A DNA stretch of 64,000 nt from the sequence record DRR723986_5317; one strand, 5' to 3'. The notes under the pieces were generated by a model that saw only the letters and a list, made by a program, of their open reading frames with translations, had not been told where the DNA came from and searched no databases. Positions 1,569 through 4,267 of the stretch are shown one piece after another; the stretch's first letter is position 1, and every line of letters starts with the position of its first letter. The translations under genes were made by a program, and so were the position numbers.

Positions 1569-1745
1569 TTAGGCGACTTTTTTTAGTAAATCAAAACAAG
1601 GGCATTTTTTGCAACGCTTATGTTCTGCTTTTTTATACTTTTTGCAGCACTTAGATTTTACTTTTCCAAGACCCTCAATTCCTTCAGTCTGCAGAACTTT
1701 TATACGTTCTTCTTTAAGCTTTTTTTTCTTCTTTTTTTTGCCCAT
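1569..1745 (-). CDS. Small (58 aa) Lys/Cys-rich protein with FhuF-type CC-x10-C-x2-C motif; putative [2Fe-2S] protein (absent from ORF track)
   Basis: Manual translation MGKKKKKKKLKEERIKVLQTEGIEGLGKVKSKCCKKYKKAEHKRCKKCPCFDLLKKVA*; own -7 box TATTTTTG at 1776-1769; same strand as ferritin. Confidence 0.75.
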   Translation of the reverse strand: MGKKKKKKKLKEERIKVLQTEGIEGLGKVKSKCCKKYKKAEHKRCKKCPCFDLLKKVA

Positions 1746-1768
1746 CGTCTTCGTAAGAAATAATGGTG

Positions 1769-1800
1769 CAAAAATAATTATTTTTATTTATTCTAAATAA
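1769..1800 (-). promoter_or_regulatory. -7 promoter element plus adjacent candidate iron/Fur operator for the small Cys-rich gene
   Basis: Minus strand TTATTTAGAATAAATAAAAATAA (1800-1778), then TATTTTTG (1776-1769). Confidence 0.55.
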
Positions 1801-1810
1801 ATTTTAACAC

Positions 1811-2335
1811 TTACAGGTCCGTATTTAAGTCTTGTGCTGCAGAGTTAACTGTAAGTTGCTGAATGTCTCTATCAAATAAATATAATCCTCCTTTATCATC
1901 TCCGATCATGTTAATTTTATCTAAGATAGTTCTTGCCACAGCTTCTTCTTCAATTTGCTCCGCAACGTACCATTGTAAAAAGTTATGTGTAGCATAATCT
2001 TTTTCTTGTAAGGATATGTGTACTAATTCATTAATACTTTCAGAAACAAAGATTTCATGTTCAAGAAGTTTTTCAAACATTTTTTTAAATGTATTGAATT
2101 CTACATTTGGTGCGTTAAGTTCAGAGATATGTGCATGTCCACCACGTTCATTAACAAACTTCACCAATTTTAGCATATGTTCGCGCTCTTCATCAGACTG
2201 GTCGTACATAAAATTAGAAATTCCTTCTAAACCTTTTACTTCTGCCCATACAGCCATTGCTAAATAGACTTGAGATGATTCTGCTTCTATTCTAATTTGT
2301 TTGTTTAATGCAGCTTCTATTGATTTTGATAACAT
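1811..2335 (-). CDS. ftnA: Non-heme ferritin
   Basis: Ferroxidase-centre motifs (IEAESSQVY, EEREH, EHE, WYVAEQIEEE); -7 box TATCTTTG at 2360-2353. Confidence 0.95.
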   Translation of the reverse strand: MLSKSIEAALNKQIRIEAESSQVYLAMAVWAEVKGLEGISNFMYDQSDEEREHMLKLVKFVNERGGHAHISELNAPNVEFNTFKKMFEKLLEHEIFVSESINELVHISLQEKDYATHNFLQWYVAEQIEEEAVARTILDKINMIGDDKGGLYLFDRDIQQLTVNSAAQDLNTDL

Positions 2336-2415: not shown

Positions 2416-2444
2416 AAAAAACCGCAAGTGAATCGCTTGCGGTT
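2416..2444 (-). terminator. Intrinsic terminator after T9SS gene
   Basis: AACCGCAAGTGA-a-TCGCTTGCGGTT hairpin with A-run on + (U-tract on -). Confidence 0.75.
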
Positions 2445-2466: not shown

Positions 2467-3219
2467 CTATTGCTTTATAAAACGCTTAATTTCATTGCCA
2501 TTTTCAGAAGTAATTTTTACTAAATACAATCCTGATTCCCATTTAGAAACATCAATTTGAGAAGCATCATTTGATGCTATGGATTTAACATAAACTTGCT
2601 TACCAAGCAAATCAAATACTTCAATTTGCCCGTTAGTTATCGACGAATTAATTTCAATATTCAAAATATCACTAGTTGGGTTTGGATACATTTTTAGACC
2701 ATTGTTTTCTCTAAAACTATCTACACTTAATGTACTCCAATTGCTTACACCATTTTGGGTACCATCTCCGTTATATTGAAATGGTGGTGCATCAGTTATA
2801 AAAGTATCTGCTACCCATAAACCAGCTGCAACAGCCACAGACTCCCTACTAATTGCGGCACCTGTTCCCCATTGTAAAAAATCTAACATGGCAGCACTAG
2901 ATCCAAAGCTAGAACTATTATACAAAGCAAATTCACCACTCGCTACCACCAGATTTAACGAACTAGCAACGTCTAGCTCTGCACCTGGTGCCAGAGTTGT
3001 TTGGGCAGTCATACTACTCAAATGTGCATAAGCGGGTCTAACACAAAACCAATAGCCAGAGATTGTTGCTGTTGCATCTCCAAAGTTTTTAAGTGTTATA
3101 GAATTTGTACTTGGGTCTGCTCTAAGAATTCTAACATTTTCTTGAGCAGTTAAATGTAAACTGAAAATCGAAACCAAAATGGCTACGAATACTAATTTTA
3201 AAGTGTAATTCTTTTTCAT
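2467..3219 (-). CDS. Small T9SS type A cargo protein (beta-sandwich domain); start corrected to MKKNYTLK
   Basis: Signal peptide follows ATG at 3219; YPNP...GLYLVKI...KRFIKQ CTD; the track's longer start overlaps the upstream gene. Confidence 0.8.
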   Translation of the reverse strand: MKKNYTLKLVFVAILVSIFSLHLTAQENVRILRADPSTNSITLKNFGDATATISGYWFCVRPAYAHLSSMTAQTTLAPGAELDVASSLNLVVASGEFALYNSSSFGSSAAMLDFLQWGTGAAISRESVAVAAGLWVADTFITDAPPFQYNGDGTQNGVSNWSTLSVDSFRENNGLKMYPNPTSDILNIEINSSITNGQIEVFDLLGKQVYVKSIASNDASQIDVSKWESGLYLVKITSENGNEIKRFIKQ

Positions 3220-3364
3220 AATAATGTGTTTAAAATTAAAGCTGTTCTCCTCTTTGAAATGGATCACTCTAAAAATAAAGAGCAAACTCATTTTTAACTT
3301 TTTAAATCGAACAAATAGCAGTAAAAGATAAGGAATTTTAAGTATAAAGTTAGATTCGGCTTTT

Positions 3365-4267
3365 TTAAAAGAAAATTTCTTGAGCCAATCTAAAGGTATT
3401 GGCGTGAGCATCAACTATGGTTTTAATGTCAGGAGAATAACCTCCTCCCATGCTACACATAACAGGAATATGGTAATCTTTACAGATTTGAAGAACATAG
3501 CGGTCACGTTCTTTGCAACCATTAGTAGACATGCCTAATTTCCCTAATTTATCTGTAGAAATTACATCTACACCGCATAAATAAAAGATAAAATCTGGTT
3601 GTTGCTCATTAATTAGATTTGGTAAAACACGCTTTAAAATTGAAAGATAGGTGGAGTCATCAGTATCATTCTCTAAAGCGATATCCAAGTCACTAATTTC
3701 TTTTTTAAACGGATAATTACTTTTGCCATGCATAGAAAAAGTATAGACAGAATCATCATTCTGAAAAATTTCTGCAGTACCATTGCCTTGATGGACATCT
3801 AAATCTACGATAAGTATTTTTTTTGCTAATCCTTTATTTTGAAGATAGCGTGCTCCTATAGCTTGATCGTTTAATAAACAAAAGGCTTCACCACGATTGG
3901 TATAAGCATGATGCGTGCCACCTGCGATATTCATGGCAATGCCATTTTTTAAAGCGTACTCTGAAGCTTTAATAGTGCCATCTGCAATAATAACTTCGCG
4001 CTCAACTAAAACTTCACATAGTGGAAAACCAATTTTACGCGCAGCGCGCTGATCTAGTGTTATGTTTACTAAATCATAATAATATTCTGGCTCATGTACG
4101 GCAAGTATATGCTTGTCATTCGGTCTAATGGGTTCAAAAAAATTATTGCCACTGCAAGTACCTTCATAAAGTAATTGCTGTGGCAATAAATCATATTTTT
4201 CCATTGGGAACCGATGTCCTTCTGGTAATGGGTGTTTGTAAATTGGGTGATATGCTATTTTAAGCAT
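3365..4267 (-). CDS. Histone deacetylase family (AcuC/AphA-like) amidohydrolase
   Basis: GGTHHA, GEAFC, DLDVHQGNGT, GGGY motifs. Confidence 0.95.
   Translation of the reverse strand: MLKIAYHPIYKHPLPEGHRFPMEKYDLLPQQLLYEGTCSGNNFFEPIRPNDKHILAVHEPEYYYDLVNITLDQRAARKIGFPLCEVLVEREVIIADGTIKASEYALKNGIAMNIAGGTHHAYTNRGEAFCLLNDQAIGARYLQNKGLAKKILIVDLDVHQGNGTAEIFQNDDSVYTFSMHGKSNYPFKKEISDLDIALENDTDDSTYLSILKRVLPNLINEQQPDFIFYLCGVDVISTDKLGKLGMSTNGCKERDRYVLQICKDYHIPVMCSMGGGYSPDIKTIVDAHANTFRLAQEIFF

Follow-up and report, generated by a model that had tools for sequence, protein, structure and literature searches.

A ferritin-linked 58-residue protein of Flavobacteriaceae with a FhuF-type cysteine motif and a predicted Fur-type operator

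Background

The small protein Bfd, the gene of which is repressed by Fur, is the closest described counterpart of the protein reported here. Bfd is the sole well-described partner in iron release from a ferritin. In the account given in PMC11303784, it acts through the haem of bacterioferritin (Bfr), via which it supplies electrons to the ferric core for the release of Fe2+. A second system of relevance is FhuF of E. coli, which reduces the Fe(III) of hydroxamate siderophores. A C-C-x10-C-x2-C motif ligates its 2Fe-2S cluster, the four ligands reside in one loop, and the members of the adjacent Cys pair sit on different Fe atoms, as described in 10.1101/2023.07.04.547673. FbpA, FbpB and FbpC of Bacillus subtilis are basic, Fur-regulated proteins of 29-54 aa according to PMC10730256.

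The window analyzed here is a stretch of DNA of 64,000 nucleotides (record DRR723986_5317), in which a short gene, hereafter the mini-gene, follows a ferritin gene. To our knowledge, the retrieval of iron from non-haem ferritin in bacteria is an open question; Flavobacteriaceae are major marine degraders in iron-poor water. The mini-gene and its product, the mini-protein, provide a concrete gene and a small protein for this question. Full-text literature on FhuF-like proteins, on FhuF with ferritin and on the Christiangramia forsetii relative contained nothing relevant; supplementary tables of transcriptome or proteome papers may list the mini-protein as hypothetical.

Like Bfd (PF04324), the mini-protein is small and encoded beside an iron-storage gene; Fur control and synthesis at iron shortage, known for Bfd, are for the mini-protein predicted only. 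In contrast to Bfd, it has no PF04324 match and a different Cys spacing, and it is probably far more basic than a ferredoxin. The partner of Bfd is, in PMC11303784, a haem-binding bacterioferritin, whereas the neighbour of the mini-gene is a haem-free Ftn. FbpA, FbpB and FbpC, likened to the mini-protein by description only, are similarly small, basic and Fur-regulated in the account of PMC10730256, the Fur box of the mini-gene being predicted; they belong to a different phylum, and neither a Cys4 site nor adjacency to ferritin is reported for them.

Results

The mini-gene and its ferritin neighbour

The mini-gene (1569..1745, minus strand) is an ATG-started ORF of 58 codons, recognized as a gene by homologous clusters and dN/dS. 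It had been skipped because the default ORF listing has a threshold of 60 aa. The earlier note had singled out this ORF 65 nt 3' of ferritin, its CC-x10-C-x2-C spacing, the Tyr three residues past CC and the run of seven lysines; the sequence found is identical to the one quoted there, and all these features are present. The computed mass of the product is 6.75 kDa, its pI 10.0 and its net charge about +16.5; 23 of the 58 residues are Lys or Arg. Seven Lys in a row make up residues 3-9; the corresponding codons (1719..1739, minus strand) carry two A8 tracts in the mRNA, and a Lys-rich N-terminus is kept at the protein level among aligned relatives. The putative metal-ligand loop, CC-x10-C-x2-C-P-C, outlined by the alignments, spans codons C33-C50 (1596..1649, minus strand). 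The protein has five Cys in total, all within 18 residues. Four make up the FhuF-type set seen earlier; the fifth, in C-P-C, had been overlooked, and is invariant in close relatives only.

The ferritin gene (1811..2335, minus strand) is separated from the mini-gene by a spacer of 65 nt (1746-1810). It encodes a non-haem ferritin of the Ftn type, 174 aa long, matching PF00210 over residues 8-144 (E 1.7e-39); the best NCBIfam match is NF007638, non-heme ferritin (E 1.4e-36), under the cut-off of that model. The Met found in Bfr at haem-ligand position 52, as numbered in PMC11303784, is absent. With a pI of 4.7 and a net charge of about -15 per subunit, the ferritin is opposite in sign to the mini-protein. 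A two-way terminator-like hairpin detected 5' of ferritin by the terminator scan (2420..2444) starts the unit made up by ferritin and mini-gene, and closes the preceding gene. No intrinsic-terminator-like site was found between ferritin and mini-gene, or 3' of the latter. The pair is flanked by genes at 163-1482 and 2467-3414 (both minus strand), the products of which have a type IX secretion C-terminal sorting domain; the first of them, downstream of the pair, shows weak metalloprotease-like matches.

The sole RNA-library contig spanning the gene, of 462 nt and from a metatranscriptome run, extends over 1463-1925, thus including the mini-gene, the spacer and the 3' end of ferritin; the contig could be DNA carry-over, and proves neither transcription nor a single transcript. 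It shows no base differences from the window, but lacks 2 nt in the A8 tracts of the Lys run and has 1 nt inserted past the ORF. The gap may reflect misassembly, a difference between strains or slippage of the polymerase. Sequences from three other RNA runs cover parts of ferritin, the next gene, or the Lys-run stretch of a relative only.

The AlphaFold2 model of the mini-protein obtained from a 65-sequence alignment is unreliable (pLDDT 63.6), and has helices at residues 3-21, 31-39 and 50-57. A sequence-profile search of solved structures gave nothing meaningful (best E 1.9). Prediction of a complex of two ferritin chains and the mini-protein, run without family alignments, gave a score of 0.01 and a mark of 0.34, and is neutral on binding.

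Conservation of the mini-protein

A word-indexed search identified 196 homologous protein clusters at E<=0.01, one of which is identical to the mini-protein of the window. Sources are Winogradskyella, Psychroserpens, Mangrovimonas and numerous metagenomes. Every named cluster is a 'hypothetical protein', already called by gene finders in public collections, and no Pfam family matches the mini-protein or its relatives. Hence the mini-protein, introduced as unannotated, is so in function and family, while its gene had been called and an identical protein is public. When 1.84 billion representatives were searched exhaustively with a profile, 39 matched at E<=0.001; four of these, P0140, P0141, P0145 and P0158, are translated tandem-repeat DNA, hence no relatives. 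Matches in the ESM Atlas are unnamed Bacteroidota clusters only. The search for longer or fused relatives came up empty, a result that is weak evidence by the warning of the tool itself. Searches of the ORF and the spacer against Rfam, and of the mini-protein against RNA-binding families with family and structure profiles, gave no match.

Six residues (C33, C34, C45, C48, P49, C50) are invariant in 42 aligned close relatives. In a 32-sequence alignment reaching down to 35% identity only C33, C34, C45, C48 and P49 are, and these five are invariant in all of the alignments A1, A2 and A3. C50 is swapped for M, S, K or L in distant relatives, such as Flavobacterium species. The conserved core thus consists of the four-Cys FhuF pattern and a Pro, and conservation of the four Cys, proposed as a check on the original observation, is borne out. 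For 18 different genes of 58 codons, compared in 41 pairs, the median dN/dS was 0.072, with dS near saturation (median 1.8). A family profile detected the mini-gene in 137 of 301 sampled Flavobacteriaceae genomes, as a single copy each time; a weak match in genome G034, lacking the Cys motif, was rejected as a family member. The mini-gene is a real gene under purifying selection.

Relation to FhuF

Ferric-siderophore reductases of the FhuF type (TIGR03950, TIGR03951; structure 7QP5) share with the mini-protein the C-C-x10-C-x2-C motif, the Tyr at CC+3 and the location of both near the C-terminus. They differ in size, FhuF having 262 residues and the mini-protein about 58; the N-terminal FhuF domain of about 200 residues is absent from the latter as a whole. 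The profile scores of the mini-protein are also far under the family cut-offs. All 42 aligned members match TIGR03950, the model of siderophore ferric iron reductase, weakly and at its final 40 positions (best E 2.5e-4), the mini-protein of the window with E 0.0022 and 17.9 bits against a family cut-off of 137.9 bits; TIGR03951 is matched by 4/42 members. By hhalign, the C-terminal tail of E. coli FhuF aligns to residues 29-49 over 21 columns (E 0.0057, probability 6.4%), and the columns in common hold the four Cys, the Tyr at CC+3 and basic residues. Pfam FhuF_C was matched by none of the 42 members at E<=10, and the comparison with the FhuF C-terminal domain proposed in the earlier note gave no significant homology. 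Of the FhuF motif invoked there, the ligand set and the weak tail matches stand; homology to FhuF_C is unsupported. No full-length FhuF-type reductase was found in the five genomes examined. Judging from these profiles, the likeness to FhuF is that of a common ligand motif without demonstrated homology, and the mini-protein is no member of the FhuF family. The most likely role of its four invariant Cys is to bind a [2Fe-2S] cluster as in FhuF.

Linkage to ferritin

To define a set of loci, one genome per species was scanned, and the best 80 of 123 confirmed relatives were kept. Ferritin lies directly upstream of the mini-gene, on the same strand and at less than 250 nt, in 62 of these 80 loci; in 3 it occupies another position in the locus, and 15 lack it, one of these having just 240 nt of upstream sequence. 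A deacetylase-family gene is present within 4 kb in 39/80 loci, and each other neighbour seen in the window in at most 10/80. Named hosts are all Flavobacteriaceae genera, bar one metagenome bin labelled Lentisphaeria. The pair resides there in a 7-kb contig (L003), with a ferritin 91% identical to that of the window; this is probably a misbinned Flavobacteriaceae contig.

In the even selection of 301 Flavobacteriaceae genomes, the ferritin of the window was matched at E<=1e-25 in 174. Comparison of the tables by hand gave both genes in 125 genomes, ferritin alone in 49, the mini-gene alone in 12 and neither in 115. Of the 137 genomes with the mini-gene, 93 have ferritin immediately upstream and 43 lack this adjacency; for 16 of the 137 adjacency was unreadable from the tables, 15 being non-adjacent on inspection and one undecided. 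The loci counted have a common ancestry, hence the linkage counts are no independent events. Five genomes in which a mini-gene of the type found in the window is unlinked to ferritin have a strong ferritin elsewhere. In Flagellimonas-type loci lacking ferritin, a ferritin-like gene with a Dps-range PF00210 score lies downstream of the mini-gene, at 1.7-2.0 kb by ORF coordinates in L072 and L076, and at about 3.4 kb by genome coordinates in L008 and L021.

Ten weak matches (E 1e-7 to 9e-4; loci L111-L120) all lie just 3' of a ferritin 51-57% identical to that of the window. Their products, of about 47 aa, keep the CC-x10-C-x2-CP core, lack the Lys-rich N-terminus, and have three additional Cys before the core motif, seven in total, which hints at a second metal site. 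No match to the deacetylase gene was found in any of these ten loci, of 2.7-2.8 kb each. In one of them, read by eye in full, the ORF 5' of ferritin is a hydroxymethylglutaryl-CoA-lyase-like gene, not a deacetylase. The pairing of a divergent ferritin with a divergent mini-gene is the strongest single point for linkage, and the synteny with ferritin anticipated in the earlier note holds both among close relatives and in this subfamily.

Other subfamilies and their neighbours

Cys spacing varies in the rest of the family from x8 to x11. The second recurrent neighbour of the family is a histone-deacetylase-family gene, found in the window two genes upstream of the mini-gene (3365..4267, minus strand; PF00850, E 1.8e-57). 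Members of the CC-x11-C-x2-CPC subfamily lie directly 3' of such a gene, with overlapping stop and start in L121 and L127. The deacetylase gene is directly upstream of the mini-gene also in L179, L181, L190 and L192, and L126 is a further locus with a deacetylase-family neighbour. In type-A loci lacking ferritin, a deacetylase gene is still nearby in 12/15. As many loci are ordered deacetylase-ferritin-mini-gene, ferritin may have entered an older deacetylase-mini-gene pair.

The CC-x8-C-x2-CPC subfamily, hosted by Christiangramia and Antarcticibacterium, features a conserved hydrophobic N-terminal stretch. A Fer2 ferredoxin gene resides within about 1.5 kb in all seven loci (L123, L124, L128-L130, L177, L178), and the mini-gene is directly 3' of it in two. 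Genes for a pyridine-nucleotide reductase (a thioredoxin-reductase-like flavoprotein), ApbC and DUF3050 are found alongside in the loci reaching far enough. Five genomes with these other subfamilies have no detected Ftn-type ferritin, the only PF00210 match being in the Dps range (75-84 bits). Given such contexts, and genomes in which no Ftn-type ferritin was detected, the core function of the family cannot be strictly ferritin-dependent.

Promoter and predicted Fur-type operator

Alignment of 46 spacers between ferritin and mini-gene revealed a conserved AT-rich inverted repeat. In spacers of the type found in the window it precedes a TAnnTTTG box, some 23 nt away from the ATG. We take TAnnTTTG to be the -7 promoter consensus of Bacteroidota; in the window the box is at 1769..1776 (minus strand), 23 nt before the ATG, a position kept in the aligned spacers. 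Next to it is a predicted Fur-box-like operator of 19 nt (1780..1798, minus strand), matching the Fur box of Riemerella anatipestifer at 15/19 positions, the left half being perfect. The latter was predicted as a 19-mer by Guo et al. 2017 (PMC5609570), where whole promoter fragments containing it are described as shifted in gels; the consensus used for comparison is thus itself a prediction. At least 15/19 was reached in 2 of 2000 random 160-nt pieces of the window.

The motif-bearing ORFs of L001-L130 and of the window were monitored for a Fur-like box of at least 14/19 in the 220 nt upstream: 120 of 132 have one, vs. 1/132 downstream control stretches. Of the 12 ORFs lacking the box, 10 belong to the other two subfamilies, CC-x11 and CC-x8, in which no Fur box was found, one is a divergent ferritin-linked member, and one is a spurious ORF. 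Nine loci with no ferritin nearby retain the box about 30 nt before the ATG, and therefore the box belongs to the mini-gene. No Fur-like box was found upstream of the ferritin of the window (best 12/19), and the upstream regions of the deacetylase genes reached 14/19 in 0/44 loci, so that deacetylase gene and mini-gene would be differently regulated in the clade of the window. Loci of the divergent subfamily are arranged as ferritin, T-run hairpin, -7 box, Fur-like box, ATG.

In one complete genome carrying the pair (G305), the palindrome, allowing at most one mismatch, was found four times, before aconitase, feoAB, hemA and apbC-nifU; a TonB-dependent receptor gene is preceded by an exact 15-mer. 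These sites (L136, L161-L164) sketch a candidate Fur regulon of marine Flavobacteriaceae. With two mismatches, the 17-nt palindrome is weakly enriched in the same genome (61 vs. 45). In the window it has 8 matches vs. 10 expected, and enrichment is lacking for the 15-nt spacer motif as well (2 matches vs. 4.4 expected); in three genomes the 15-nt motif is barely enriched (13, 10 and 19 vs. 8, 12 and 14 in the control). The predicted Fur-type operator overlaps the promoter of the mini-gene and is conserved, and would place the mini-gene under Fur control.

Discussion

We tentatively propose, rating the chance as somewhat short of even, that in this clade the mini-protein is a small Fur-repressed Fe-S protein, probably of the 2Fe-2S type, helping to mobilize the iron stored in ferritin. 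Since the predicted Fur operator overlaps its own promoter, the mini-gene would be off at plentiful iron and on at shortage, unlike the ferritin gene upstream, which has no Fur-type site. Opposite charges would bring the cationic mini-protein to the acidic shell of ferritin, a ferredoxin/ferredoxin-reductase pair would supply it with electrons, and by handing these to the ferric core it would let Fe2+ leave ferritin. A new electron path would be needed because the ferritin next to the mini-gene is haem-free, and the Bfd route described in PMC11303784 runs through Bfr haem. The result would be a functional Bfd analogue for a ferritin lacking haem; a stand-alone Bfd was found in none of the five genomes examined. 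Cluster binding, Fur control, contact with ferritin and electron transfer are what we infer for the mini-protein. The observation in the earlier note is confirmed, and its interpretation as a Bfd-like module in part: the predicted Fur-type operator, missed there and new to this analysis, fits a Bfd-like regulatory logic, whereas the occurrence of other contexts speaks against a strict dependence on ferritin.

It is somewhat doubtful that the mini-protein would rank as the first partner dedicated to iron release from a haem-free bacterial ferritin, made up of little besides a FhuF-type [2Fe-2S] loop on a polycationic handle, placed under Fur control and providing a haem-free electron route. If true, few natural 2Fe-2S proteins would be smaller, and the FhuF ligand loop would be workable on its own.

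Other readings of the data differ in what they make of the ferritin neighbour. The mini-protein may serve the iron and Fe-S economy at large as a small carrier of Fe-S, iron or electrons, or be the partner of the deacetylase-family enzyme, adjacency to ferritin being an inherited gene order in one clade. Subfamilies that abut the deacetylase-family gene, the stop of which overlaps the start of the mini-gene in L121 and L127, are what one would expect if so, as are the deacetylase gene persisting in 12/15 ferritin-less type-A loci, the members beside Fer2, reductase and ApbC genes, and the five genomes of this kind with no detected Ftn-type ferritin. Yet the mini-gene is paired with ferritin in 62/80 loci, and accompanied by a deacetylase gene in 39/80; pairing with ferritin recurs in the divergent subfamily, where none of the ten loci has a deacetylase match, and no deacetylase gene (0/44) has a Fur box. 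We regard this reading as rather unlikely. Persistent linkage to ferritin would be unexplained if the mini-protein were a Fur-regulated basic nucleic-acid protein acting in iron sparing like FbpA, FbpB and FbpC of B. subtilis, with the Cys residues forming a zinc knuckle or an iron sensor. Its 58 aa, pI of 10.0, 23 Lys and Arg, predicted N-terminal helix and predicted Fur-type operator all agree with a role of this sort, the Fbp proteins being given in PMC10730256 as small, basic, Fur-regulated presumed RNA chaperones. Adjacent Cys, a hallmark of the FhuF cluster site as described in 10.1101/2023.07.04.547673, would however be atypical of a zinc knuckle, and no known RNA-binding family was matched; on balance a role of the Fbp kind seems clearly unlikely.

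The Cys residues admit another use, namely that of a Zn, Cu or Fe2+ buffer or chaperone with no redox role. Five Cys crowded in 18 residues, and three more in the divergent subfamily, would suit it; strictly fixed spacing and an invariant Pro argue instead for one defined site, not for loose buffering, and the predicted Fur-type control points to iron, which makes a plain buffer very improbable. Practically no chance is left to the notion that the ORF is fortuitous, or part of a non-coding RNA element in the 3' region of ferritin. Shortness, below the 60-aa listing threshold, and a low-complexity N-terminus may have spoken for it; it is refuted by the pattern of conservation, as shown by the dN/dS of 0.072, the 196 clusters with invariant Cys and the single copy in 137/301 genomes, along with the lack of Rfam matches in ORF and spacer.

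The recurrence of a Lys-rich protein beside an enzyme of the lysine/hydroxamate amidohydrolase type may be related to control by acetylation, or to the processing of hydroxamate siderophores, both suggestions being pure speculation.
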